A DNA stretch of 64,000 nt, from assembly GCA_965242525.1 (NCBI GenBank), contig OZ251459.1, positions 2,336,001 through 2,400,000 of the forward strand. Direction: 5' to 3'. The stretch comes from an uncultured Candidatus Binatia bacterium. GTDB taxonomy: Bacteria > Desulfobacterota > Binatia > UBA9968 > JAJDTQ01. Below, piece by piece: positions 33,184-57,824 of this stretch. The notes beneath the pieces are model-generated. The model had not been told where the DNA came from. It searched no databases and saw nothing but the letters and a program-made list of their open reading frames with translations. Made by a program: the position numbers and the translations under genes. How positions within the stretch are numbered: position 1 is the first letter of the stretch; every line of letters starts with the position of its first letter.

Positions 33184-33825
33184 TCATTCCGCTCCCGGCG
33201 CCGGGTGGCTTTCCGGTTCCGTGACCTGCTCCGACGAGGGTGTGTCCGGGGGCCGGATCAGGGCCGACTGGAGTATCTGCAACTGGCCTTCCACCGAGAG
33301 AAAGCGGTCGCTCGTCTCCTTGCGAAGGGCTTGGTCCGCACTGCTCAGAGCCAGACGGTCTTCACGCACTTCGGCGCGCAGACCTCGTATCTCGGCGCGC
33401 AGTTGATCGAACTGCCCGTTCATCTCACCAAACCGTCCGTCCATCTCCGTGCGCGCTTGAGCGAACTTCTCGTTCATCTCGGCGCGCAGACCGTTCATCT
33501 CTGTACGCAGTTGAGTGAACTGCCCCTTCATCTCACCGAACCGTCCGTTCGTCTCCGCGCGCTGCTGACCAAACTGCCCGTTCGTCTCCGTGCGCTGCTG
33601 ACCAAACTGCCCGTTCGTCTCCGCGCGCGCTTGAGCGAACTTCTCGTTCATCTCTGTGCGCAGTGCCTGGATCTCCGTGCGCATCTCGATGCGAAGGCTG
33701 TCGATGCGACCGGACAGGTTGAACATGCCGGCGCCGAGCATCAGCCCCATGGTGACGATGGCGATCAGCTCCGGGCTCAAGCGGAAGCCGGAAAACCTTG
33801 CCGAGTCTTTTGCTGCGTCGGCCAT
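33184..33825 (-). CDS. TM-anchored coiled-coil protein with 11/7-aa tandem repeats
   Basis: LSPELIAIVTMGLMLGAGM then RAETNGQFGQQ-type repeats (33-bp DNA units); upstream TTGATC-N17-TATTAT promoter. Confidence 0.8.
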   Translation of the reverse strand: MADAAKDSARFSGFRLSPELIAIVTMGLMLGAGMFNLSGRIDSLRIEMRTEIQALRTEMNEKFAQARAETNGQFGQQRTETNGQFGQQRAETNGRFGEMKGQFTQLRTEMNGLRAEMNEKFAQARTEMDGRFGEMNGQFDQLRAEIRGLRAEVREDRLALSSADQALRKETSDRFLSVEGQLQILQSALIRPPDTPSSEQVTEPESHPAPGAE

Positions 33826-37671: not shown

Positions 37672-38139
37672 ATGGAGTGGATGACGATCCTGCAGGCCGT
37701 GGTCACCGTCGGCTTCGCCGTCCTCGCGCTGGCGGTGACCTTGATGGGGAAGCGCTTCGACGACATGCGCGGGTCCACGGACAACCGCTTCGACGACACG
37801 CGCCATCACACAGACACTCGCTTCGAGGCCGTGGAAAGGCGCTTCGATGACGTGGACCAACGTTTCAACACCGTGGACAAGCGCATCGACGACATGCGCC
37901 ATGACATGGACGAACGCTTCCGCGGCGTGGACAGGCGTTTCGACGACATGGAGAAGCGTTTCGAGGATATGGAGAAACGCTTCGACCAGCGTTTCGAGAA
38001 CATGGACAAGCGCTTTGAAAACATGGACAAGCGTTTCGACGACATGGACAGACGTTTCGACGACATGGCGAAGCGCTTCGACGACATGCGTGGATACCTG
38101 CTGCACGAGCGCGGAGGCGACAGGCCCAGCGCCGCCTGA
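37672..38139 (+). CDS. TM-anchored coiled-coil protein with RFDDMDK heptad repeats
   Basis: MEWMTILQAVVTVGFAVLALAVTLM plus many 7-aa (21-bp) repeats; AGGAG RBS, upstream TACAAT. Confidence 0.82.
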   Translation: MEWMTILQAVVTVGFAVLALAVTLMGKRFDDMRGSTDNRFDDTRHHTDTRFEAVERRFDDVDQRFNTVDKRIDDMRHDMDERFRGVDRRFDDMEKRFEDMEKRFDQRFENMDKRFENMDKRFDDMDRRFDDMAKRFDDMRGYLLHERGGDRPSAA

Positions 38140-38917: not shown

Positions 38918-39140
38918 CTTCGATTCCTCGTCTTGCGCATGTCTTCGGGATTCCGAACCCCTCGGAACCCCGCCATCGTACACGTGTAGCGCATACGGCT
39001 ACCCGTAACCGTATAATCGAGAAACCACCCGCGGTCAAACCTGCCGTCGCTGTCCCCGCCCCCTCTCCCGCCCGAAACCCGGTTCCGAGTCGTTGACATG
39101 CAGCGGGCGAAGACGATAAGCACCGTTGTCAACATCGGAA

Positions 39141-39283
39141 GGGAACCCTGAACAATCACCTCCGTTCGTCATGAGCGTAGCGAAGCGAAGTCTCCCGTTC
39201 ATCCTGAGCGTAGCGAAGCGAAGTCGAAGGACGGGCTTTCCCACAGGGAGATGCGATTCGAGCCGGAATCGTTCAGGGTTTCC
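39141..39283. mobile_element. 143-bp MITE with GGAA target duplication
   Basis: GGGAACCCTGAACAAT...ATCGTTCAGGGTTTCC; GGAA on both sides; duplicated REP core. Confidence 0.85.
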
Positions 39284-39299
39284 GGAAGGGAGCTGCGCC

Positions 39300-39401
39300 A
39301 TGACAGGGTTCGAAGCCGCGTCCGCCGCCTGCCGGAACGCCGAAGCCTTGCGGTCGCTCGTCAAGGGCATGGAGACCGCGCATGGGGTCCGGGCCGAATG
39401 A
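39300..39401 (+). pseudogene. Collapsed remnant of an MTEFEAA-family coiled-coil gene
   Basis: MTGFEAASAACRNAEALRSLVKGME matches the N- and C-terminal parts of the 44292 and 57000 paralogs, with a similar RBS leader. Confidence 0.6.
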
Positions 39402-40351
39402 ACAGATCCGAACTCGACCGCGTTGTCTTGTCTTCGGCGATGGCTTCCAACACCAAGCTGGCTTATGAAAAGGGCTGGGCCTGTTTCGCCGCGTACTGCG
39501 CCAACGAAAACATCGACGACCCCTTGGCGGCCTCTCCCGACTCCGTGGCCCTTTTCCTGGTTCACTGCGCCACACGGCCCCGTTCCACCAACGGCGTCCC
39601 CCTGTCCATGGGCACCGTCGTCCTCTACAACAGCGCCATCACCAAACGCTACGCCGACGCCGGCAAGACCTCGCCCACCCATCACCCCCTCGTCCGGGCG
39701 ACCCTCAAGGGGCTGGCCCGCGCCAGGGGCACGGCCCCCCGGCGAGTCAAGGCTTTGCGCGAGGAGCACATCCGGGCCATGATCGCCCGATGTCCCGACT
39801 CGGTCATCGGGGTCCGTGACGCCGCCCTTCTCGCCCTCGGCTTCGCCGCGGCCTTGCGCCGGTCGGAACTCTGCGGGTTGTCCGTGGACGACGTGACCGT
39901 CCTGCCGCAGGACCGGGACCATCCCCGGCGGATGCTGCTGACCATCCGCCGGTCCAAGACGGACCAGGCCGGCAACGGCCAGACGATCCCCATCCCGGAA
40001 GGCCGGCTGATTCGCCCCATTGCCCGCGTGCAGGATTGGCTGTCCGCGTCCGGCATCACGCGCGGGCCGCTGTTCCGGGCCATGAGACGGGGCGGCTCCG
40101 TGCAGGAGGGACCGCTGCACAATTCGGACGTTCCGCGCCTGGTCAAGCGCTACGCCGCCCTGATCGGCCTGGACCCCGGGGAGGTGTCGGGCCATTCGCT
40201 GCGGGCAGGCTTCGTGACCAGCGCCGCGGCGCACCGCGCCCGCCTCGACAAGATCATGGCCATCACCCGCCACACCAACCCCGCTACGGTCCTGAAGTAC
40301 ATCCGTGACGCCGAAGCCTTCGCCGACCACGCCGGCGACGGGTTCCTGTAA
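39398..40351 (+). CDS. Cre-like tyrosine site-specific recombinase
   Basis: SAM-like N-terminus; full catalytic set R (RRSEL), K (RSKTDQ), HxxR (HSLR), H (TRH), Y (KYIR). Confidence 0.93.
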   Translation: MNRSELDRVVLSSAMASNTKLAYEKGWACFAAYCANENIDDPLAASPDSVALFLVHCATRPRSTNGVPLSMGTVVLYNSAITKRYADAGKTSPTHHPLVRATLKGLARARGTAPRRVKALREEHIRAMIARCPDSVIGVRDAALLALGFAAALRRSELCGLSVDDVTVLPQDRDHPRRMLLTIRRSKTDQAGNGQTIPIPEGRLIRPIARVQDWLSASGITRGPLFRAMRRGGSVQEGPLHNSDVPRLVKRYAALIGLDPGEVSGHSLRAGFVTSAAAHRARLDKIMAITRHTNPATVLKYIRDAEAFADHAGDGFL

Positions 40352-40375
40352 ACGTTGCCAGCGCCGCCTGCCCAC

Positions 40376-40562
40376 GGAAACCCCGAACAAACATCCCCGT
40401 TCGCCCTGAGCATGGCGAAGCGAAGCATCCCGTTCGTCTGAGCGTAGCGAAGCCCCGTGTCCTGGGGGGAAAAGTGAAGTTCCCCGTGTCCTGAACATGG
40501 CAATGTGAAGTCCCCCCGTTCGTCCTGAGCGTAGCGAAGCGAAGTCGAAGGACGCGCTTTCC
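40376..40562. mobile_element. MITE/REP copy with multiple cores; right end missing
   Basis: GGAAACCCCGAACAA left end, three partial or complete REP cores. Confidence 0.75.
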
Positions 40563-40565
40563 ATA

Positions 40566-40593
40566 GTCCTCGGTTATCTACCTAACTGAGGAC
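40566..40593 (+). other. Putative tyrosine-recombinase site A (11-6-11)
   Basis: GTCCTCGGTTA-TCTACC-TAACTGAGGAC: arms inverted with 1 mismatch; marks the start of porin homology. Confidence 0.7.
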
Positions 40594-41748
40594 AACAACG
40601 AGGAGGGCTACCAGCAGGGCCAGATCCGGATTCGGCGGTTCCGCCCGTCCATCAACGTGACCTCGCAGCAGGGCTTCTACGAAGTGAGGTGGACCTTCAA
40701 CGGAAACAGCGCAGCCTTCGATGGCGACGGCTACCTCCACTTCGAGAAGATGAACCCCTACCTCCCCACGGTGGGATTCGGGTTCAATCCCAGTATCACG
40801 GGCTTGAACGAGAGCGCCTATCGGGTTGAAGACTCCATCCTCGCTGACACTCTGGCTTTCGCAGGGAGCCAGGACCGGAGCCTCGTGTTCGCATGGAACA
40901 AGCTCCCTGCCATGGGAACCGCGAAGGTCGCTTACCTGAACTTCGCCATCGGCCATGACGAGAAGCCGGTCAGCGCCAAGGATACGTATATGGGCACGAC
41001 CGCCTCGGGTGAAGCCGTCACCGTCACGGGTCCCTCGAGGGGGACGGACGAGTACGCGAGGCACCCGGCCGTCACCGACAACTCCCGTTCGATGCTCGTT
41101 ACCCTCGGACTGAAGCCCCTTGGCGCCGCCAAGGCGATGGGGGGCATCGATATGTCCAGCTTCCAGTACGATTTCGCCTACGAGAACCTGAGGAACAGTT
41201 ACAACGAAGGCGGCTTTGCAGGCGGCCTCTGGACCGTCAACGCCACCAAGAATGTCAAATTGGCCAGCCTTGGAAGCGCTGTAGGTGACCACACCTTCGT
41301 GGGGCACGGCCTCCAATGGAGCCCCCTAAAGCCAGTGTCTCTTGCCACTCATTTCATAGACTGGAAGGCCGACGCCGACGCGGGCGTGGCGGCCGACCTG
41401 CGGGCCACCGAGTGGAGGGTTGCGCTCAACATATGGCTGTGGGGTCCCAAGAGCGGCATGATGGGCGGAAGCAAGAGCGAAGGCGGCATCTCCACCTCTC
41501 CGATGTATTCCGTAGTGGACCTGAAAGACATGGGCACCGCACCCAATGGTGTTGCCAAGCCCATCGGCGAAGTGAAGAACCTGGGGTGGGCGGTCGTGTA
41601 CAATGTCCCCGGCGGCTGGATGCAGATCCACGGTATCTGGGACAGGTACGAGTGCGACCCGCAGATTTGTGACCCCGCGGTGGCGCTGGTATCCGAAAAC
41701 GGCAAGTCCTTCAGCACCTTCACCCTGGTCGCAGAGTACAGGTTCTAG
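40579..41748 (+). CDS. Silent (start-less) porin C-terminal cassette, 389 aa, paralog of 46078-47469
   Basis: Open from YLTEDNNEEG to AEYRF; in-frame TAG at 40564; no RBS, start or signal peptide. Confidence 0.85.
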   Translation, partial: YLTEDNNEEGYQQGQIRIRRFRPSINVTSQQGFYEVRWTFNGNSAAFDGDGYLHFEKMNPYLPTVGFGFNPSITGLNESAYRVEDSILADTLAFAGSQDRSLVFAWNKLPAMGTAKVAYLNFAIGHDEKPVSAKDTYMGTTASGEAVTVTGPSRGTDEYARHPAVTDNSRSMLVTLGLKPLGAAKAMGGIDMSSFQYDFAYENLRNSYNEGGFAGGLWTVNATKNVKLASLGSAVGDHTFVGHGLQWSPLKPVSLATHFIDWKADADAGVAADLRATEWRVALNIWLWGPKSGMMGGSKSEGGISTSPMYSVVDLKDMGTAPNGVAKPIGEVKNLGWAVVYNVPGGWMQIHGIWDRYECDPQICDPAVALVSENGKSFSTFTLVAEYRF

Positions 41749-41766
41749 GGTCATCGTTTCGGCTTG

Positions 41767-41823
41767 AAAAGGAGAGAAGGAAGGGCATCCTTTCGGGGAT
41801 GAGCCTCCTTCTCTCCTTTTTTT
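41767..41823 (+). terminator. Intrinsic terminator after the silent porin cassette
   Basis: AAAAGGAGAGAAGGA...TCCTTCTCTCCTTTTTT hairpin plus U-tract. Confidence 0.8.
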
Positions 41824-41909
41824 CTCTCAGGAGGGTTGCAATGAAGGGAACGATTTTGGCGTTGGCGGTAGCAGGCGTGTTGAGTGGATTTAAGGAAGGA
41901 AGGCATCTT

Positions 41910-42209
41910 ATGACACAAATCACGACAGCGACACACGATACGCTCGGTCGTAGCAAAAGGCGTTTGGTTGTACGGGGTCTTGCGTACATCCTCACCGTCG
42001 TCGCTATTGTCTCCGTTGTCTCCGTACTGTTTCGTTTCGACTCGGTGGAAGCGCAGACAACATGCACAAGGGGGGAGGCCGCCGCCGAAGCAGTGAGGCT
42101 CCAAGGCGGATATGTGATATCGGTCTCTCAAAGAAATGGGGAATTTGTCGTCCAAATGATCGACGGTAACGGCAAGCACAGGGAGATCAAAATCCTGCGG
42201 AAATGCTGA
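41910..42209 (+). CDS. Small exported protein, PepSY-like (low GC)
   Basis: Hydrophobic segment then AAAEAVRLQGGYVISVSQRNGEFVVQMIDGNGKHREIKI; start uncertain. Confidence 0.55.
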   Translation: MTQITTATHDTLGRSKRRLVVRGLAYILTVVAIVSVVSVLFRFDSVEAQTTCTRGEAAAEAVRLQGGYVISVSQRNGEFVVQMIDGNGKHREIKILRKC

Positions 42210-42970
42210 AGGCTGCAATTCTTCATGGGAGGTGCCGAATGTTTCGCAAGCCGAACGACATTTTTGCTTCCAACAAAGGCTTGGCGGCCACACGCTTGGT
42301 ACGACACTGGAAACTTGTGTTTTGGCGACTACTCTGGTTTATTGCAATTACAGTTTTGTTCGGACACACTTTAGGTTTGCCTTTCAAGCAAACGGAGCCT
42401 TATCTAACACAAGACATCCATCTTCTTGGTCAGATGTTGCGTTTTGAAATAGAAAACAAGATGAACAACGGAGACACAGAGCAACAAAGTGACAACGATG
42501 ACGGAAGGATCAAGAAGAAGAAGGCGGAGATGATTAGCAAGATTTCGCAAAACCTATTGACCGGCTTAAGTGCTACCTGGTACTTTGTTTGTGTTACTCA
42601 TAGCGGAGAATTCTTGGCAGGAGCCCCAGCGTCCGCCAAGCATTGGTGCGATGGAGATACCATAGAGAAGCATTCTTCTGGTAATCTACACAAGAAGTAC
42701 TATGTTGTGCAAGCGCGTAAGTCCGGAGGTATAGAGATACCTACAACGCTCCATTCTGTGAAGGATGGATATGGAAGCGGCTTTCACCTCTGGGTGGTTA
42801 AGAGACTTCAAGCAGAGCAAGTAGATCCGATATATTATTTGATCCAAAATAACTTTGTTCATGTCGTGCTGATACTTGGAATAATAGTGCTTTCCACGTA
42901 TGCTCTAGGGCATTTCATTCGGCAGGAAAGTCGATCCAAGAATGATTCCGGCGGAGAAAGAGTCGACTGA
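42203..42970 (+). CDS. Low-GC two-TM protein with extracytoplasmic domain
   Basis: 255-aa ORF in AT-rich DNA; TM near the N-terminus and near the C-terminus. Confidence 0.65.
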   Translation: MLKAAILHGRCRMFRKPNDIFASNKGLAATRLVRHWKLVFWRLLWFIAITVLFGHTLGLPFKQTEPYLTQDIHLLGQMLRFEIENKMNNGDTEQQSDNDDGRIKKKKAEMISKISQNLLTGLSATWYFVCVTHSGEFLAGAPASAKHWCDGDTIEKHSSGNLHKKYYVVQARKSGGIEIPTTLHSVKDGYGSGFHLWVVKRLQAEQVDPIYYLIQNNFVHVVLILGIIVLSTYALGHFIRQESRSKNDSGGERVD

Positions 42971-43203
42971 ACCCTGCGATACAGAAGGGTTATGGGCAAG
43001 AGGTGATCGAACCACTCCATTGGAGATACACATCAAGGATACCGAGATGGAAGTAGATGGCGTCACGGAAGCGCTGGCGATTGCGATAGCTGCAGACACG
43101 GTGCCCCAACCCCTGGAGGTGCTGTTTCGCAGGGCCGCGAACTCTTTCCACCGCTGACGCTTCAGGTTCTCGGGGTTCCCGAGCCACGGGTAGCGGGCGC
43201 CTT

Positions 43204-43878
43204 TCAGCCGTTGCGCCCCTTCTCCCGGCAGCTTGCGCTGTTCCTGTCGCCACGCAAGCTACTTCCCGTCGCTCTCAGAAAAGCCCCTGTCCGAGATTCG
43301 TCCTTCAGGAATCGGGTCGCCTCGCCCATGTACAGGCAATTACGCATCTGTTGCCGGGACAGGGGGACCCCGCCGTTCACTCGCTCGAAGATGTCCAGTC
43401 GAGCCTGTTCGGGAACCTTCGCGTCGATGACGTACAGGATCAGGTTGCAGTCCTCGACGCGATTTTGTAGCTTGGGCGTCAGATCTTCGAATTTCTTGCT
43501 GTTCAGTTCGGGCCGGTCCTCAAGTCAAAGCTGGAGTTCGTTGTTCACGAAACGCTGGAAGGTGGTCAGCCTTTGCAGCCCGTCCACGACCACCAGACGT
43601 TCCCGGTCGTCCTCCGCGAGATAGAAGACGGGCAGAGGGATCCGCATCACCACGGACTCGATCAGTCTGCTCTGCTTGTCCGGATCCCAGATGAAGTCAC
43701 GCTGGAAGGCCGGATCCATCACGAAGGCTCCCCGCTCTATCCTGCGCAGAACATCGTGCACAGTGCGGGTCTCGTTCCGTATCAGCAGGGTGTCGATGGG
43801 ATAGTCGCCCCAGGAGGCGGCTTTGTCGTCTCCCAGACCTTCGATCTTCTCAGGCTCGGTGTCGGTGGGTGTCGTCAT
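43204..43878 (-). pseudogene. DUF262 (ParB-like, GmrS-type) gene with internal stop and 3' truncation
   Basis: PAFQRDFIW, VVDGLQRLTT, in-frame TGA at 43525, then LDIFERVNGGVPLSRQQMRN in the same frame. Confidence 0.85.
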
Positions 43879-43980
43879 GTTACTTGCCCTGTGTTGACCA
43901 GGCGTAGCGCACATCCCGGCCCACGTACCTGGCCAGACGCGAAAGGGTGGCGGCGCCGGCCGTTACCGGCGCGGCAGATG

Positions 43981-44259
43981 CTACCACTCCCAATACCAGG
44001 CGGAGAGAATGTCGCGGCCCACGTAATCGACCAACCGCCAGAGGACGACGGTGGCGGCCAGACAGAGCGCGGCCACGGGGATGGTGAGCCACCACCACCA
44101 GAAGCCGACCAGGTAGCCCAGGACGGCCAGAATCAGCAACGCTCCGGTCGTCCCTCCCGCAAGTCCCATGACTCCCATAACGACAAGCTGAAGGTCGAGC
44201 TTCCCGGCGTCACTCATACGGGCAAGGCGGCGGTCCAGCCGTGCTTTCAGGCGTGTCAT
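43981..44259 (-). CDS. Small two-TM membrane protein
   Basis: 92 aa, GGAGGGAG RBS, hydrophobic with FWWWWL. Confidence 0.65.
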   Translation of the reverse strand: MTRLKARLDRRLARMSDAGKLDLQLVVMGVMGLAGGTTGALLILAVLGYLVGFWWWWLTIPVAALCLAATVVLWRLVDYVGRDILSAWYWEW

Positions 44260-44291
44260 GGCGGTTCTCCCTCCCGTGGCGGCGCCGGCCG

Positions 44292-44804
44292 TTACTGGCG
44301 CGGCGCGGTCCGTTCGATGACGGCCTCCATGCTCTTGACCGCGGCGCGCAAGCTCTCGCCCTGCTGCCGTAGTGCTTCCATTGCTTCGGCGTGGCGCTGG
44401 TCAGCTTCGGCGCGCTGCGCTTCGGCTTGGTGGCGCTGCGCTTCCATCTGCGCCTCGACTTGGCGGCGCTGCGCTTCCGTCTGCGCTTCGATCTGGCGGT
44501 GCTGCGCTTCGGCTTGGCTGCGTTGTGCTTCGGCTTGGCGGTGCTGCGCTTCGATCTGCGCTTCGATCTGGCGGTGCTGCGCTTCGGCTTGGCTGCGCTG
44601 CGCTTCTATCTGCGCTTCGATCTGGCGGGCGCGGTCCCGGTTGGACCTGTCCATGACCCGGATACCCCGGAGGACCACGAAGATCTGACCGAGGCCCACC
44701 AGTCCGGTGACGAGCGGGATGGCGACAGCGGCCCAAAACTGTAGCTGCTGCAAGGCAAGCGCGGCCTGCTGGTAGGCTACCGTTGCGGCTTCGAACTCCG
44801 TCAT
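44292..44804 (-). CDS. MTEFEAA-family TM-anchored coiled-coil protein with EAQ repeats
   Basis: TM followed by QAEAQRRQ/QIEAQ tandem repeats; paralog of 57000-57824. Confidence 0.8.
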   Translation of the reverse strand: MTEFEAATVAYQQAALALQQLQFWAAVAIPLVTGLVGLGQIFVVLRGIRVMDRSNRDRARQIEAQIEAQRSQAEAQHRQIEAQIEAQHRQAEAQRSQAEAQHRQIEAQTEAQRRQVEAQMEAQRHQAEAQRAEADQRHAEAMEALRQQGESLRAAVKSMEAVIERTAPRQ

Positions 44805-44880
44805 GGCGTGTCTCCCTTCCTCCCCTCCGGCAGCGGCCGCTACTGGCCCGGCGCTGCATGGCCGTAGCGCAACCTGGCAA

Positions 44881-45015
44881 GCGCGTCCTTCGACTCCGCT
44901 TCGCTACGCTCAGGACGAACGGGGATGGGACGCTTCACTACGCCCGGGACGAACGGGGACAGGAGGATCAGGATGAGGGAATCCATCCTGGACGTCTCGA
45001 TTGTCCAGAGGTTCC
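44881..45015. mobile_element. MITE/REP family copy
   Basis: REP core and right end ATTGTCCAGAGGTTCC. Confidence 0.75.
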
Positions 45016-45145
45016 TATCGTCTTCGACCGCCGCCTGTCAACGACCCGGACCGAGGTTCCGTGCGGGAAGGGTTGCCGGGAGTGCGAGGGCAAGGCGATG
45101 TTTCGTTCGGTCGGGATGGGAGCAAAGCGGGGCCACGGCAGCAGC

Positions 45146-45553
45146 TCAACGCCGTCCTTCGATCTCGTTCCGGGCCGCGCTGGACAGGAAGGCCGAGCGG
45201 GTCATGCCGCGGCGCTTCGCTTCGTCGTCGATGGCCTGGAGCAGGCCGTAGTCCAGAGAGACGTTGACACGCCGCGGAGAACCCTTGTCGAGGACGAGAG
45301 GAACGAAGGCCATGTCCGAGCCTTCCCGCCACTCGGCAAGGCTCGGGTCGGCCTTGATCTCCCCGACAGCGCGCGGTTCCGGGACCGCTTCCCCGTCCTC
45401 GATCATGCCCTCGACGTGAAAGGCCAACGCCGCGGCGCCGCGTTGGATCGTCTCCTCCACGGTGTCGCCATCCGATACACACCCGGGAAAGTCGGGGAAG
45501 CTGATGCCGAAACCGGGGCCGTCACCACCGTGGATGAACGCGACGTAGCGCAT
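45146..45553 (-). CDS. hicB: HicB antitoxin (RHH C-terminus)
   Basis: FGISFPDFPGCVSDGDT...RRVNVSLD...RGMTRSAFL. Confidence 0.93.
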   Translation of the reverse strand: MRYVAFIHGGDGPGFGISFPDFPGCVSDGDTVEETIQRGAAALAFHVEGMIEDGEAVPEPRAVGEIKADPSLAEWREGSDMAFVPLVLDKGSPRRVNVSLDYGLLQAIDDEAKRRGMTRSAFLSSAARNEIEGRR

Positions 45554-45565
45554 GGGATCCTCCTT

Positions 45566-45754
45566 TCACTTCCAGCCAGCCTGCCTGTAGATCGAGACAA
45601 CCGTACCTCGTTTGAGGTCCCTGTTCGGGTGGGGCACCGTGACGCGGCTTCTTCTGACAGGATTCTTGAACTGGTAATGACTGCCCCTGGTGGCGACAAG
45701 AAACCATCCATCCCGTTTCAAGAGCCTGATCAACTTGCGACTGTCACGTTCCAT
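45566..45754 (-). CDS. hicA: HicA mRNA interferase toxin
   Basis: LLKRDGW...GSHYQFK...VTVPHP..DLKRGTVVSIYRQAG. Confidence 0.93.
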   Translation of the reverse strand: MERDSRKLIRLLKRDGWFLVATRGSHYQFKNPVRRSRVTVPHPNRDLKRGTVVSIYRQAGWK

Positions 45755-45766
45755 GCCCTGCCATCT

Positions 45767-45786
45767 TTGTGTATTAAAATACACAA
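45767..45786. promoter_or_regulatory. Palindromic operator, probably HicB autoregulation
   Basis: TTGTGTATT-AA-AATACACAA perfect inverted repeat 12 bp upstream of hicA. Confidence 0.7.
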
Positions 45787-45894
45787 TTTCGACAGCTCGG
45801 ACAACCACCCTGAAGACCTCTCCAGGACTCTGTGTGGGTATAGACCGGTAACATGGTTTACACGGCAAGGGGTGTCGGCAAGGAGGGAGAGATA

Positions 45895-45975
45895 AGCGCG
45901 CCCTTCGACTCCGCTTCGCTACGCTCACTCAGGACGAACGGGGACAGGAGGGTCAGGATGAGGGAATCCATCTCC
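45895..45975. repeat. REP/MITE family copy
   Basis: CCCTTCGACTCCGCTTCGCTACGCTCA...GGACGAACGGGG...GGGAATCCATC. Confidence 0.75.
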
Positions 45976-46020
45976 AAGGGGTGAAGCGGTTGGACGGGGG
46001 CGAGGGGCGGGGGCGGACGT

Positions 46021-46053
46021 AAAAAGGGGCCGTCCCCGGAAGGACAGCCCCTC
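46021..46053 (-). terminator. Intrinsic terminator of the full-length porin gene
   Basis: Minus strand AGGGGCTGTCC-TTCCGG-GGACGGCCCCT followed by TTTT. Confidence 0.8.
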
Positions 46054-46077
46054 TTGTTTCAAGCCGAAACGATGACC

Positions 46078-47469
46078 CTAGAACCTGTACTCTGCGACCA
46101 GGGTGAAGGTGCTGAAGGACTTGCCGTTTTCGGATACATCCTCCACGTTGTCGGCACACACCAACGGGTCGCACTCGTACCGGTCCCAGATACCGTGGAT
46201 CTGCATCCAGCCGCCGGGGACATGGTACACGACCGCCCAACCCAGGTTCTTCACTTCGCCGATGCCCTTGTCAGCGCCCTCGTCGTCCACGCCGGTGTCC
46301 TTGAGGTCGATGACGGAATACATCGGAGAGGTGGAGATGCCGCCTTCGCTCTTGCTTCCGCCCATCATGCCGCTCTTGGGACCCCACAGCCATACGTTGA
46401 GCGCAACCCTCCACTCGGTGGCCTTCAGGTCAGCCGTCACGCCACTGTCGGCGTCGGCCTTCCAGTCGATGAAATGGGCAGCCAACGAGACCGGCTTGAG
46501 GGGACTCCACTGGAGGCCGTGTCCCACGAAGGTGTGGTCGCCCACAGCCTTTCCGAGGTTGGCCAACTCGACCTGCTTGGTGGCGTTGGTGGTCTTGAGC
46601 ACGGCGGCGCCTTCGTTGTAACCGTTGCTCAGGCCCTCGTAGGCGAAGTCGTACTGGAGGCTGCTCATGTCGATGCCGCCCATGCTCTTGGAGGCGCCAA
46701 GTGGCCTCAGGCCGAGGGTGAAGAGCATCGAACGGGAGTTGTCGCTGACGTCTGGATGCTTGCCGTACTCATCCATTTCGTCGTGGCCGATGGCGAAGTT
46801 CAGGAAGGCGACCTTCGCGGCTCCCATGTTGGGGAGCTTGTTCCATGCGAGCACGAGGCTCCGGTCCTGGCCTCCGGCGAAGCCCAGGTTGTCAGCGAGG
46901 ATGGAGTCTTCAACCCGGTAGGCTCCCTCGCTCAAGCCCTTGATGCTGGGGTTGAACCCGAATCCCACCGTGGGGAGGTAGGGGTTCATCTTCTCGAAGT
47001 GGAGGTAGCCATCGCCATCAAAGGCCGCGTCTTGGGAGCCGCCGCCGTTGAAGGTCCACTTCACTTCGTAGAAGCCCTGCTGCGAGGTCACGTTGATGGA
47101 CGGGCGGAACCGCCGAATCCGGATCTGGCCCTGCTGGTAGCCCTCCTCGTCGTTGTCCTCCGTTAGGTAGAATGTCGAGAAGAGCTGCAGCCTCTGGGTG
47201 AAGTTGATGCTCCAGTTGTTGTCCGCGGCAGCGATGGTCAGGCCCTTGCCGGCGCCGTACTTGAAGCTCGGCATCTTCATCTCGGCGGCGAGGGCGCGCT
47301 CTTCGTCAACCGTCTCCTGCCTCTGCTTCAACTCGGCGATCTGGCGCTCCAGGTCGGCGATCTTGGCATCCACCTCGCTGGCCTGTAGCGGGGATGCCGC
47401 AAACGTCATTGCTCCAACCAAAAACAGGGCACTCGCGATGCCAAGCGCCCGCCTCGAGAGTTTTTTCAT
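46078..47469 (-). CDS. Outer-membrane beta-barrel porin (OprP/OprO-like), full length
   Basis: AGGAGG RBS, signal peptide, short coiled coil, GKGLTIAAADNNWSINFTQRLQ, RIRRFRP, C-terminal AEYRF. Confidence 0.82.
   Translation of the reverse strand: MKKLSRRALGIASALFLVGAMTFAASPLQASEVDAKIADLERQIAELKQRQETVDEERALAAEMKMPSFKYGAGKGLTIAAADNNWSINFTQRLQLFSTFYLTEDNDEEGYQQGQIRIRRFRPSINVTSQQGFYEVKWTFNGGGSQDAAFDGDGYLHFEKMNPYLPTVGFGFNPSIKGLSEGAYRVEDSILADNLGFAGGQDRSLVLAWNKLPNMGAAKVAFLNFAIGHDEMDEYGKHPDVSDNSRSMLFTLGLRPLGASKSMGGIDMSSLQYDFAYEGLSNGYNEGAAVLKTTNATKQVELANLGKAVGDHTFVGHGLQWSPLKPVSLAAHFIDWKADADSGVTADLKATEWRVALNVWLWGPKSGMMGGSKSEGGISTSPMYSVIDLKDTGVDDEGADKGIGEVKNLGWAVVYHVPGGWMQIHGIWDRYECDPLVCADNVEDVSENGKSFSTFTLVAEYRF
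47155..47182 (-). other. Putative recombinase site B inside the porin gene
   Basis: Minus strand CTTCTCGACAT-TCTACC-TAACGGAGGAC: same spacer and near-identical inner arm as site A, in inverted orientation. Confidence 0.65.
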
Positions 47470-47704
47470 GACCTCCTCCTTCTAACCGAAAGTGTGCCGA
47501 CACGGGAACGTCGGCCCGGAACGAACAAAAATCTTACGGGAAGTTATCTACTAATTCTACGGCCCTCCCGCAACTGACCGAAAGTACACTTTTCCCCGAA
47601 AACACCCTGTCAACGGTTCAGAGGGATAGGCCGAAAGTTGCAAACATCGACAAAAATGGGTAGAGTGTCGCCGAACTTGTGGAAAACATCGGAGGATTCC
47701 AGCC

Positions 47705-48361
47705 ATGGAGTCGATAAGGATCGTGGTCGCCGACGACCATACACTGTTTCGCGCGGGTTTGAAACGGTTGCTGACGCGGGAGAAGGACCTGCTGGTGACC
47801 GGGGAGGCGGGGCGGGCCGAGGATACGGAGCCCGCGGTGGCCAGGGGCAAGGCCGACGTGCTGTTGCTGGACCTCAGGATGCCGGGCGGCGATGCGGTGC
47901 AGACGCTGCTGGACCTGGAGGAGCGGCGCCCCCGGACCCGGACGGTGATCCTCACCGCGTTCGACCACGAGGACGGCATACTCGACACGGCCAAGGCCGG
48001 GGCCCGGGGCTACGTGCTCAAGGGGGTTTCGCCCACGACCCTCTTCCAGGCCATACGGACCGTCCACGAGGGGGGGATCTGGATCGATCCGGGGCTGCCC
48101 CAGGCCGGCGAGTTCTCGGCCATCGCCTCGCGGCGGACCAGGACGGAGCCGTCGAGGAAGGAGCCCGACGGCATCGACACCCTGAGCCGGCGGGAGATGG
48201 AGGTGCTGCGGCTGGTGGCCGAGGGGCTCTCCAACGAAGAGATCGCCGCCAACACCTTCATCAGCGAACGCACCGTCAAGGCCCACCTGGCCAACATCTT
48301 CGGCAAGCTCCAGGTGAACAACCGGGTCAAGGCGGCGCTCGCGTTCCTGAGGAGGGGTTGA
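47705..48361 (+). CDS. NarL/LuxR-family response regulator
   Basis: VADDH, LLDLRMP, GARGYVLK, LSRREMEVL...TVKAHLANIFGKL. Confidence 0.95.
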   Translation: MESIRIVVADDHTLFRAGLKRLLTREKDLLVTGEAGRAEDTEPAVARGKADVLLLDLRMPGGDAVQTLLDLEERRPRTRTVILTAFDHEDGILDTAKAGARGYVLKGVSPTTLFQAIRTVHEGGIWIDPGLPQAGEFSAIASRRTRTEPSRKEPDGIDTLSRREMEVLRLVAEGLSNEEIAANTFISERTVKAHLANIFGKLQVNNRVKAALAFLRRG

Positions 48362-48365
48362 GGGG

Positions 48366-48407
48366 GCGTCCTTCGACTTCGCTTCGCTACGCTCAGGACG
48401 AACGGGG
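48366..48407. repeat. REP core overlapping the MFS stop codon
   Basis: GCGTCCTTCGACTTCGCTTCGCTACGCTCAGGACGAACGGGG. Confidence 0.85.
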
Positions 48408-49733
48408 AGGGGTGTTCCCGATCCTCGATTTACCGCGCTCCTCGTCCACCCGTTGGACCAGCGCCAGCCCGACGACGAAGAACACCAGCACCACGGCCAT
48501 GCCCGCGCGCTGGGAGCCGAACAGGCGCGTCAGCTCGCCCAGCAGGAAAGGGCCTACGAAGGCGGTGGCCTTGCCCGAGAAGGCGAACAGCCCGTAGAGC
48601 TCGTTCTTCTTGTCGGGCGGCGCGAAGCGGCCCAGGAGGGAGCGGCTGGCGGCCTGGTTGGGGCCGGCGCACAGGCCGATGAGGAGGCCGGCGCCCCAGA
48701 AGAGCGTCCGCTTGGCGGCGAGGAGGGCCGTCAGGGACGCCAGGATGAAGCCCACCAGGCTGATCTGGATGGTGCGCTTGCCGCCCAGCCGGTCGTCCAC
48801 GAACCCGAGGGCGAAAGCGCCTGCGCCCGCGGCCACGTTGAGGACCAGGCCGAAGACCAGCAACTCCTCGAAGGTGAAGCCGAAGACGCCGGCCGCGTAG
48901 ATGCCGCCGAAGGCGAAGACGGTGTTCAGCCCGTCGGCGTAGAAGAGACGGGCCAGCAACAGCCGGAAGATGTCGGGGTAGCGGCGGACTTGGCGGAAAG
49001 TCGCTGCCAACTGCCGGAAGGAGTCGGACAGGGGCGCCCGCAAGGCGTGTGCGGACGCGGGCCGTTCCCGCACCCAAAGGAAGAACGGCACGCTGAACAC
49101 GGCGAACCAGACGGCCACCAGCAGGTTGGTGGCGCGGATGTGCTGGTAGCCTTCCCTGGCGAGGCCGAACCAGGGGGTCTCCGCGTCCACGAAGCCCACC
49201 AGGGCGATGCCCAGAGCGCTCAGGCCGCCCACGTAGCCCAGGGCCCAGCCGTAGCCCGAGACCCGGCCGATGCGGTCCGGCGGCGCCACGTCGGGCAGGA
49301 AAGCGTTGTAGAACACCCCGCCCAGCTCGAAGGCGACGTTGGCCAAGGTGAACCAGAACAGCGCCTTGGTCACCTGGCCGGGCATGGCGGTGTAGAGAAA
49401 GGCCGCGCCGACCACGGCCATCGCGGTGAAGGAGCCGAGGAAGCGTTTGCGGTGGCCCACCCGGTCGGCCAGGGCGCCCAGGAGCGGCGACAGCAACGCC
49501 ACCGCGACCGCGGTCAAGCTGACGCTCCGGGACCACAGCCACGTGCCCGTGACCTCGTCGGGAGCGATGACCTTGGTGAAGAACGCGGCGTAGATGAAGG
49601 TGACCACGAGGGTCGTGAAGGCGGAGTTGGCGAAGTCGTAGAAGCACCAAGCGACGATGCCGCGGCGGTCGGTGGGGGGGACGGGGTAGCTGGTGGGGGG
49701 GTTGGGAGGGTTGGCGGGGCGGTCGGTGGACAT
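48393..49733 (-). CDS. MFS transporter (UMF1/Atg22-like)
   Basis: AWCFYDFANSAF, YNAFLP, GRVSGYGWALGYVGG, GPNQAASRS. Confidence 0.92.
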   Translation of the reverse strand: MSTDRPANPPNPPTSYPVPPTDRRGIVAWCFYDFANSAFTTLVVTFIYAAFFTKVIAPDEVTGTWLWSRSVSLTAVAVALLSPLLGALADRVGHRKRFLGSFTAMAVVGAAFLYTAMPGQVTKALFWFTLANVAFELGGVFYNAFLPDVAPPDRIGRVSGYGWALGYVGGLSALGIALVGFVDAETPWFGLAREGYQHIRATNLLVAVWFAVFSVPFFLWVRERPASAHALRAPLSDSFRQLAATFRQVRRYPDIFRLLLARLFYADGLNTVFAFGGIYAAGVFGFTFEELLVFGLVLNVAAGAGAFALGFVDDRLGGKRTIQISLVGFILASLTALLAAKRTLFWGAGLLIGLCAGPNQAASRSLLGRFAPPDKKNELYGLFAFSGKATAFVGPFLLGELTRLFGSQRAGMAVVLVFFVVGLALVQRVDEERGKSRIGNTPPRSS

Positions 49734-56999: not shown

Positions 57000-57824
57000 A
57001 TGACGGAGTTCGAAGCCGCCACCCTCGCACTACAACAGCAGCAGCTTTGGGCCGCTATCGCCATTCCGCTTGTCGCCGCATTGGTGGGCCTCGGTCAGAT
57101 CCTCGTGGTGCTCCACGGAATCCGGGTCATGGACAGGTTCAACCAGGATCGCGCCCGCCAGATCGAAGCGCAGATAGAAGCACAGCGCGGCCAAGCCGAA
57201 GCGCATCGCCGCCAGGTCGAAGCGCAGATGGAAGCACAGCGCCGCCAAGCCGAAGCGCGGATGGAAGCACAGCGCGACCAGGCCGAAGCGCAGCGCGAGC
57301 AGGCCGAAGCGCAACGCCGCCAAGTCGAAGCGCAGACGGAGGCGCAGCGTGAGCAGGCCGAAGCGCAACGCCGCCAGATCGAAGCACAGACGGAGGCGCA
57401 GCGCGAGCAGGCCGAAGCGCAACGCCGCCAAGCCGAAGCGCAGACGGAGGCGCAGCGTGAGCAGGCCGAAGCGCAACGCCGCCAAGTCGAAGCGCAGACG
57501 GAGGCGCAGCGTGAGCAGGCCGAAGCGCAACGCCGCCAAGTCGAAGCGCAGATGGAGGCGCAACGCGAGCAGGCCGAAGCGCAGCGCCGCCAAGCCGAAG
57601 CGCAGATGGAAGCGCAGGAACGCCAAGCCGAAGCGCAACGCCGCCAAGCCGAAGCGCAGCGCGCCGAATCTGACCAGCGCCACGCCGAAGCAATGGCCGC
57701 CCTCCAAGTGCTCATCAAGGGCCAGGACAGGCAGGCCGAAGCCTTGCTTGCCGCGGTCAAGAGCATGGAGCGGCAAGCCGACGCGCTCAAGGTGGTCATC
57801 GAACGGACGGCGCCCAGGGTTTGA
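57000..57824 (+). CDS. MTEFEAA-family TM-anchored coiled-coil protein with expanded 18-aa repeats
   Basis: QAEAQRRQVEAQTEAQRE units (54 bp); N- and C-termini nearly identical to 44292-44804. Confidence 0.82.
   Translation: MTEFEAATLALQQQQLWAAIAIPLVAALVGLGQILVVLHGIRVMDRFNQDRARQIEAQIEAQRGQAEAHRRQVEAQMEAQRRQAEARMEAQRDQAEAQREQAEAQRRQVEAQTEAQREQAEAQRRQIEAQTEAQREQAEAQRRQAEAQTEAQREQAEAQRRQVEAQTEAQREQAEAQRRQVEAQMEAQREQAEAQRRQAEAQMEAQERQAEAQRRQAEAQRAESDQRHAEAMAALQVLIKGQDRQAEALLAAVKSMERQADALKVVIERTAPRV

Follow-up and report, generated by a model that had tools for sequence, protein, structure and literature searches.

A 28-bp element at the edge of a silent porin cassette

In the genome of an uncultured Candidatus Binatia bacterium (G000), a 28-bp palindromic element marks the edge of a silent, inverted copy of a porin gene, close to a gene for a tyrosine recombinase. 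From sequence comparison we hold, with modest confidence, that this element is probably the core site, on the cassette side, of an inversion switch run by a tyrosine recombinase.

The element occupies positions 40566-40593 of the window, by which we mean the whole 64,000-nt stretch that was analysed. It reads GTCCTCGGTTA-TCTACC-TAACTGAGGAC, an 11-6-11 layout whose arms pair at 10 of 11 positions, exactly as in the original prediction. The outer arm (GTCCTCGGTTA, 40566-40576, plus strand) comes directly after an in-frame TAG (40564-40566) that closes the cassette frame, and is thus non-coding. Nucleotide homology between the cassette and the full-length porin gene begins at 40577, the first base of the asymmetric 6-bp spacer (TCTACC, 40577-40582, plus strand), so the outer arm lies outside the duplication and is absent from the full gene. 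Two earlier claims, that the palindrome sits at the porin homology boundary and that its outer arm is non-coding and missing from the porin gene, are thereby confirmed to the base. The spacer, our proposed crossover region, supplies the first six bases of gene/cassette homology and is followed by the inner arm (TAACTGAGGAC, 40583-40593, plus strand), which is coding in the cassette frame (..L-T-E-D). A cluster of REP-like extragenic repeats (40375-40562, plus strand; families D4 and D10) fills the space between the recombinase gene and the palindrome and ends 3 nt before the latter.

The window contains two copies of the 17-mer TCTACCTAACNGAGGAC, where 0.02 would be expected, and the 16-mer made of the outer arm and five spacer bases is unique both in G000 and in the sister genome described below (G023). 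The window has 6 palindromes of the 11-6-11 type with at most one mismatch and the whole genome has 209 (~3 per 64 kb), so the palindrome by itself is not beyond chance. The probability that one of them would coincide with the homology boundary is, by our own arithmetic, about 209 x 5 / 4.2 Mb = 2.5e-4. The weight of the argument rests on this coincidence and on conservation in the sister genome, not on the palindrome alone.

The cassette itself (40567-41748, plus strand) is a 393-codon open frame, an inverted copy of about codons 98-463 of the full gene, with no start codon, ribosome-binding site or signal peptide. It shares 77% amino acid identity with the full gene, has a GC3 of 0.81 and carries a 29-residue loop insertion. 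Identity between gene and cassette is 88.5% in the modelled strands and 77.9% elsewhere. The first 127 nt of homology (I5, 40577-40703, plus strand) are 98% identical to the inverted stretch 47045-47171 and represent a recent conversion tract.

The full porin gene and its partner site

The full, expressed-type gene (P0001, 46078-47469, minus strand) encodes 463 aa, with a signal peptide, a coiled-coil helix (30-64) and a β-barrel. An AlphaFold2 model built from 40 homologues (pLDDT 74.8, pTM 0.71) had its best Foldseek matches in OprO (4rjw, E 2.2e-15, TM 0.61/0.66) and OprP (2o4v, E 4.4e-15), the phosphate and pyrophosphate porins of Pseudomonas, followed by other trimeric porins. No porin family in Pfam or NCBIfam matched P0001 at E 0.01. 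On the model, P0001 is OprP/OprO-like, with a predicted 16-stranded porin fold, and is porin-like by fold only; at that level the structural matches bear out the porin label that it had been given.

The partner site lies inside this gene (47155-47182, minus strand), where the original prediction had placed it, and does keep the spacer and the inner arm. It reads CTTCTCGACAT-TCTACC-TAACGGAGGAC (outer arm 47182-47172, spacer 47171-47166, inner arm 47165-47155) and encodes L-F-S-T-F-Y-L-T-E-D, its outer arm being coding as well. Two codons of the site, ACA (codon 99) and CTA (codon 102), had been called unusual for so GC-rich a gene, and they are: across 926 long ORFs of this 67% GC genome, ACA makes up 3.0% of Thr codons and CTA 0.9% of Leu codons. 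The outer arm on the gene side agrees with its cassette counterpart at only 5 of 11 positions, which leaves one of the four half-sites poor. Both spacers are asymmetric and inverted relative to each other, and they stand in the same codon phase, so that a crossover between them would yield an in-frame fusion. The predicted crossover would take place where the fourth strand of the modelled barrel ends.

Codons 1-97 and the upstream block are present in a single copy, and there is one inverted truncated copy of the gene. The fixed promoter/5'UTR block (47470-47660, minus strand), aligned with eight relatives and G023, is homologous to the promoter-bearing end of the relatives' putatively invertible centre described below. 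A sigma-70 consensus scan gave no promoter ahead of either the cassette or the gene, and the conserved upstream block is called promoter-like by position and conservation only.

The original prediction also raised the prospect of further cassettes in the genome, and here the search came up empty. A scan with the site pattern allowing up to two mismatches returned 8 matches (2 for the reversed control), exact matching returned only the two known sites, and tblastn of the genome found only the two porin loci.

The recombinase and the predicted inversion

The recombinase gene (P0002, 39398-40351, plus strand) lies in an ORF open from 39251; its probable start is Met50 at 39398, because homology to all orthologues begins there. 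The protein matches PF00589 (Phage_integrase) at 52.3 bits (cut-off 27.1, E 7.7e-14). Aligned to XerD (1a0p), its segments LRRSEL, HSLRAGF, RHTN and LKY stand opposite LRVSEL, HVLRHAF, GHSD and QIY, which we take to hold the catalytic residues of XerD. With the Arg, His-x-x-Arg, His and Tyr motif residues all in place, P0002 is predicted to be catalytically intact. It is the only copy in the genome, and its gene lies outside the predicted invertible segment, ending 215 nt upstream of the palindrome.

In the switch that we propose, the adjacent recombinase would bind both sites and pair the cassette-side site with the porin-gene site through their common asymmetric 6-bp spacer and 11-bp inner arm, in inverted orientation. 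Cleavage and strand exchange in the spacer would then invert about 6.6 kb (40577-47171). The promoter, the ribosome-binding site and codons 1-100, which specify the protein from its signal peptide through the coiled coil to the fourth strand, would stay in place as the constant part and be joined in frame to 389 cassette codons. By our own count the product would be 489 aa long, against 463 aa now, with altered loops and the 29-residue insertion, and the displaced 3' body would become the new silent copy.

Between the two porin bodies, the remainder of the predicted segment (41749-46077) holds a GmrSD_N fragment (43525-43914, minus strand, by Pfam), REP copies and a coiled-coil repeat, and is only partly common to G000 and G023. 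Positions 40001-46000 of the window form a low-GC island (0.58-0.59, against 0.67-0.73 around it). As a separate observation, coiled-coil genes made of 54-nt (and 21/33-nt) units occur at 44371-44765, 57018-57703, 33371-33652 and 37745-38112. The copy at 44371-44765, inside the predicted segment, is an 87% inverted repeat of 57018-57703, 12 kb away, and this pair is another possible recombination substrate.

Conservation of the site in a sister genome

Allowing up to three mismatches, the 28-mer is found in two of the 28 genomes of the genus, G000 and G023. The layout in G023 is that of G000: a full gene, whose porin is 84% identical, and, some 5 kb off, a truncated copy in inverted orientation. 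The sequence at the G023 cassette boundary is GTCCTCGGTTA-TCTACA-TAACCAAGGAC; that of the gene site is CTTCTCGACTT-TCTACA-TAACCGAAGAC. Loss of the palindrome from related loci of the same arrangement had been named in advance as evidence against a recombinase site; the only such genome found, G023, keeps it. The non-coding arm is identical at 11 of 11 positions next to an unrelated upstream flank; the coding inner arms show two differences per orthologous pair. We estimate the chance of an 11/11 arm under neutral drift at about 0.02, taking a neutral identity of about 0.70 from the cassette dS of 0.374. Homology between the two genomes begins at 40562, only 4 nt upstream of the arm, because of a REP insertion in G000.

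The spacer is identical within each gene/cassette pair and differs between the two genomes: the two G000 sites end it in C, the two G023 sites in A. The inner arm takes its first two bases from a CTA codon (Leu) in G000 and from an ATA codon (Ile) in G023, so that the amino acid has changed and the TA has been retained. Such a rare xTA codon stands at all four sites, compared with 2 of 33 homologous positions in the genes of other genus members. Given common descent and possible gene conversion, the arm, the spacer and the xTA codons are not three independent tests, and G023 is the sole independent comparison for the site. Gene conversion alone could explain the shared spacer without constraint.

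The G000 and G023 assemblies show the same orientation state, with no inverted form between them. The G023 recombinase orthologue is encoded 1.9 Mb away from the site, so a switch there would need action in trans, which is an added assumption. Homology around this orthologue is limited to the coding sequence, and its surroundings contain no similar site and no notable inverted repeats; near the recombinase orthologues that lie away from porins we likewise found no arm-like match of fitting geometry. Beside the G023 cassette (L029, 13200-15933), the place of the recombinase is taken by an N6_N4 methylase-HNH fusion and an AAA_21 ATPase gene, which look defence-related. For the proposal that the palindromes are the recombinase's targets, conservation of the site, the xTA codons and the genus-wide family link described below speak in favour, and the distant G023 enzyme and the poor gene-side arm speak against.

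Metagenomes provided 15 clusters of cassette-type ORFs, all intact, of which 10 reach the boundary. The outer arm translates as SSVIY in eight of these (one being G023's own) and as SSIIY in one; the tenth, P0022, has a different boundary, and every boundary-reaching ORF except P0022 has the G023-type flank. A boundary-neutral pattern had no match in JGI metagenomes and gave only the two G023 sites in the species genomes, and a protein-based metagenome scan found one locus, 28% identical. Eleven public runs contain the locus as assembled contigs. In four of them, the contigs listed over 39000-48500 break at the repeats, at 40534-40758 and at 46981-47121, and none of those listed spans either site. 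There are 76 contig joints, and most of the 15 listed touch REP copies. The REP-like repeat core CCTGAGCGTAGCGAAGCG has 21 copies in the window, between 13473 and 56879, against 0.01 expected, for example at 39203-39220, 40524-40541, 44897-44914 and 48380-48397, and contig depth at REP copies in the sponge metagenome runs reaches the thousands.

The recombinase family and porin pairs across the genus

Of the 27 other genus genomes, 12 have an orthologue of the recombinase (67-87% identity); none of 95 genomes of the order's other two families does. Relatives at 60-65% identity number in the hundreds, in MAGs labelled Gammaproteobacteria and Poribacteria. Such numerous relatives outside the order, with none in its other two families, suggest that the recombinase family has spread horizontally. 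One relative, P0195, has an added Eco57I-type methylase domain.

Inverted porin duplicates and the recombinase occur together. All 11 genomes with such duplicates have a recombinase orthologue, compared with 2 of the other 17; the genomes of the genus are related, so no statistical test is attached to these counts. The two exceptions are G011, whose enzyme is far from its one porin gene, and G018, a 76%-complete genome that lacks a porin match. In nine genomes (loci L045-L052 and L056, in G006, G002, G020, G010, G019, G007, G009, G005 and G042, respectively) the orthologue sits immediately downstream of one gene of a head-to-head pair of full-length porin paralogues. By this pattern of co-occurrence, the recombinase family is tied to inverted porin duplicates, and to porin choice, across the genus. 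In G020, the recombinase orthologue (G020:C1:3314262-3315269; L037/L047) has one in-frame TGA in the matched range.

The paralogues at the eight loci compared (L045-L052) are 77-99% identical in DNA, and in all eight the identity ends at a conserved point, 23-28 nt before the start codon (TAACTCTGATTACCAAGGAGG...). Between the paralogues lies a unique centre of 223-403 bp. One end of it holds a conserved promoter-like block, which can also be recognised ahead of the full genes of G000 and G023. Over all nine genomes this block faces the recombinase-proximal gene in three and the distal gene in six, and the centre as a whole looks like an invertible promoter segment. When the 28-mer was aligned without gaps to the relatives' boundaries, the best match fell in one register at the repeat edge in 16 of 16 boundary regions (CTCCTTGGTAA-TCAGAG-TTA, 14-17 of 28 positions). 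This match is weak, being reached by 0-127 of 300 shuffles, and it overlaps the ribosome-binding site.

These loci raise the tentative idea, which we put forward as a rather doubtful extension of the proposed switch, that one horizontally acquired recombinase family runs two porin-switch designs in a single sponge-associated Candidatus Binatia genus. One would be the flip of a promoter segment (223-403 bp, eight loci). The other would be an exchange of the porin body in G000 and G023, replacing 363 of 463 codons, with a transition between the two designs and a site pair made of a dyad and a half-site. Under the body-exchange design, again tentatively, the promoter would be fixed, the site in the coding sequence would have one good half-site, and its partner would be a full dyad in non-coding DNA.

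Selection on the cassette and alternative explanations

Between G000 and G023 the cassette has a dN/dS of 0.245 over 387 codons, with no stops in either genome; the expressed full genes have a dN/dS of 0.337. These ratios indicate that the silent copy is under purifying selection. Within genomes, dS between gene and cassette is 0.29 and 0.28, at or below the between-species values of 0.29 and 0.37. In 100-nt windows, the repeat ends are closer within a genome than between orthologues (0.98 vs. 0.93 and 0.97 vs. 0.92); the middle keeps orthology (for example, 0.79 within the genome vs. 0.87 for the orthologue). Judged from these alignments, gene conversion trims the repeat ends, and two distinct bodies have been maintained from a time before the two species separated. 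Two kept bodies fit the prediction of a whole-body switch and are also compatible with a cassette that serves as a conversion donor.

The four nearest relatives of the cassette body are all cassette-type ORFs. We found no full-length protein with the long-loop allele, which is silent in every assembly showing it, so that the switch, if it works, must be biased or rare. In the body tree, no full-length protein is near-identical to the cassette of another assembly, and identity between full and cassette bodies does not exceed 90% for any pair, a weak result given that the database was clustered at 90%.

The strongest alternative, which we regard as unlikely but of real weight, is that only homologous recombination is at work: RecA-type conversion or inversion could occur anywhere in the 1.1-kb inverted repeats, with the palindrome having no catalytic role. 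Such a locus would resemble the pilS/pilE cassettes or the sap locus of Campylobacter fetus. In sap, a RecA-dependent promoter inversion takes place between opposed surface-protein genes; the locus described here has a dedicated tyrosine recombinase instead. The mosaic identity just described, with repeat ends more alike within a genome and within-genome dS at or below the between-species values, is what this explanation would lead one to expect. So is a tree in which full and cassette bodies are mixed and a gene and cassette from the same contig can be sisters. It also accommodates the recombinase's absence from the neighbourhood of the G023 site and the constant silence of the long-loop allele, and a donor cassette would likewise be under purifying selection. 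It leaves unexplained, however, why the spacer edge of a dyad falls on the homology boundary, why the non-coding arm is identical at 11 of 11 positions and the rare xTA codons are retained, and why a dedicated recombinase accompanies inverted porin duplicates in 11 of 11 genomes. Unrestricted conversion would moreover erode both allele bodies, which have persisted since before the species split.

We consider it quite improbable that the cassette is a relic of a former second full-length porin gene, with no switching today and with the palindrome left over from an old site or formed as a rearrangement scar. The relatives do have two complete genes, with a truncated one only in G000 and G023, and a CGGTTA-like word survives in the full gene's 5'UTR where the relatives have their repeat end. 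That both assemblies are in the same state and that the recombinase is gone from the G023 locus would also agree with a relic. A decaying remnant is nevertheless hard to reconcile with open frames of 393 codons in G000 and 388 in G023, with a dN/dS as low as that of the expressed genes, or with intact cassette-type ORFs in 15 metagenome clusters, and a fold-back scar would give long arms, not arms of 11 nt.

Another role for the hairpin, either as a barrier to transcription or read-through between the recombinase gene and the cassette or as a chromosome site of the Xer/dif type, is highly improbable, half of the element being porin coding sequence. The strand does fold as an 11-bp stem (-8 kcal/mol, z -4.0, with 0 of 200 shuffles equally stable), but there is no T-run after the stem, no terminator-like site is predicted at the palindrome, and no Rfam family matches it; nor does any Rfam family or tRNA gene lie nearby. 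The terminator and known-RNA readings were rejected on these grounds. The dif site has the same 11-6-11 arm-spacer-arm geometry, P0002 is distantly related in sequence to XerD, and the cumulative GC skew reaches its minimum within the window, near 2.38 Mb. Unlike dif, the 28-mer is missing from 26 of 28 genus genomes, and it is away from the predicted terminus: the skew maximum, which usually marks the terminus, falls at 1.16 Mb, and dnaA lies at 3.47 Mb. A dif site was rejected for these reasons and because half of the element is coding. The skew profile of the 4.15-Mb contig C1 of G000 is itself odd and asymmetric, being flat from 2.6 to 4.0 Mb.

Comparison with known systems

The principle, in which an unchanging 5' expression site is combined with silent 3' cassettes and a tyrosine recombinase, is already known from mycoplasmas, plasmid shufflons, Bacteroides and hsdS. 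The inversion switch that we propose most resembles the Mycoplasma pulmonis vsa locus. According to one report (PMC2268961), the recombination site there lies inside the coding region and the recombinase HvsR is of the lambda-integrase type and encoded near the locus; the same report describes HvsR acting also on hsd, a second locus far away, which sets a precedent for action in trans. In both systems there is a single promoter and 5' coding copy, a 5'-truncated inverted silent copy, and a frame-preserving site common to the copies inside the coding region, here a 17-bp stretch of spacer plus arm. The systems differ in that there is one silent copy here and several in vsa, and in that the target is a β-barrel porin of a Gram-negative-type envelope rather than a vsa lipoprotein. 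The proposed 28-bp site, with its full dyad only on the silent side, is moreover known here from sequence comparison.

The sfx sites of the R64 shufflon, as set out in a second report (PMC11852207), consist of a 7-bp core between left and right arms of 12 bp each, with only core and right arm conserved, and their asymmetry limits the Rci reaction to inversion. The gene-side site here similarly conserves the spacer and one arm only, and the swap would likewise alter the C-terminal part of a surface protein. In contrast to the shufflon, the layout is 11-6-11, the cassette-side site is a near-perfect dyad, and the genome has two sites rather than seven, fewer than the at least four used to define a shufflon. 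P0002 also has no Rci-like C-terminal domain or extension, because it stops some 15 residues beyond its catalytic Tyr.

For Bacteroides, invertible promoters and inversions of outer-membrane proteins have been described (PMC4747536). The nine relatives with head-to-head porin paralogues around a short promoter-like segment in either orientation are akin to these promoter inversions; in G000 and G023, by contrast, the promoter is fixed and the proposed exchange point has shifted to codon 100-102. Intragenic invertons, which one report describes in gut bacteria by read mapping (PMC10028968), share with the locus described here that inversion end points within coding sequence change the protein that is made. 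They differ in that the second end here lies in a separate silent copy and the evidence here is comparative only. Among the 12 best matches of a full-text literature search that paired Binatia or Binatota with a recombinase, a porin or phase variation, no paper carried either organism name.

Implications

If the switch is real, the gain is one of breadth, a switch of a known kind in Candidatus Binatia. It would add a compact recombinase whose 28-bp site can bear coding constraints in one of its arms. The comparison within the genus is a testable series of related switches, promoter flip versus body swap, with orthologous enzymes. Should the two-design idea also hold, the genus would present a transition from promoter inversion to intragenic body swapping caught in the act, and a natural case of a recombinase that acts on a dyad paired with a half-site. 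For the organism, it would mean that an uncultured sponge symbiont varies most of the exposed surface of a major pore by one reversible DNA flip. The purpose may be variation of the surface-exposed pore, for example against phages or in host recognition, and the switch would then bear on how such a symbiont copes with both.
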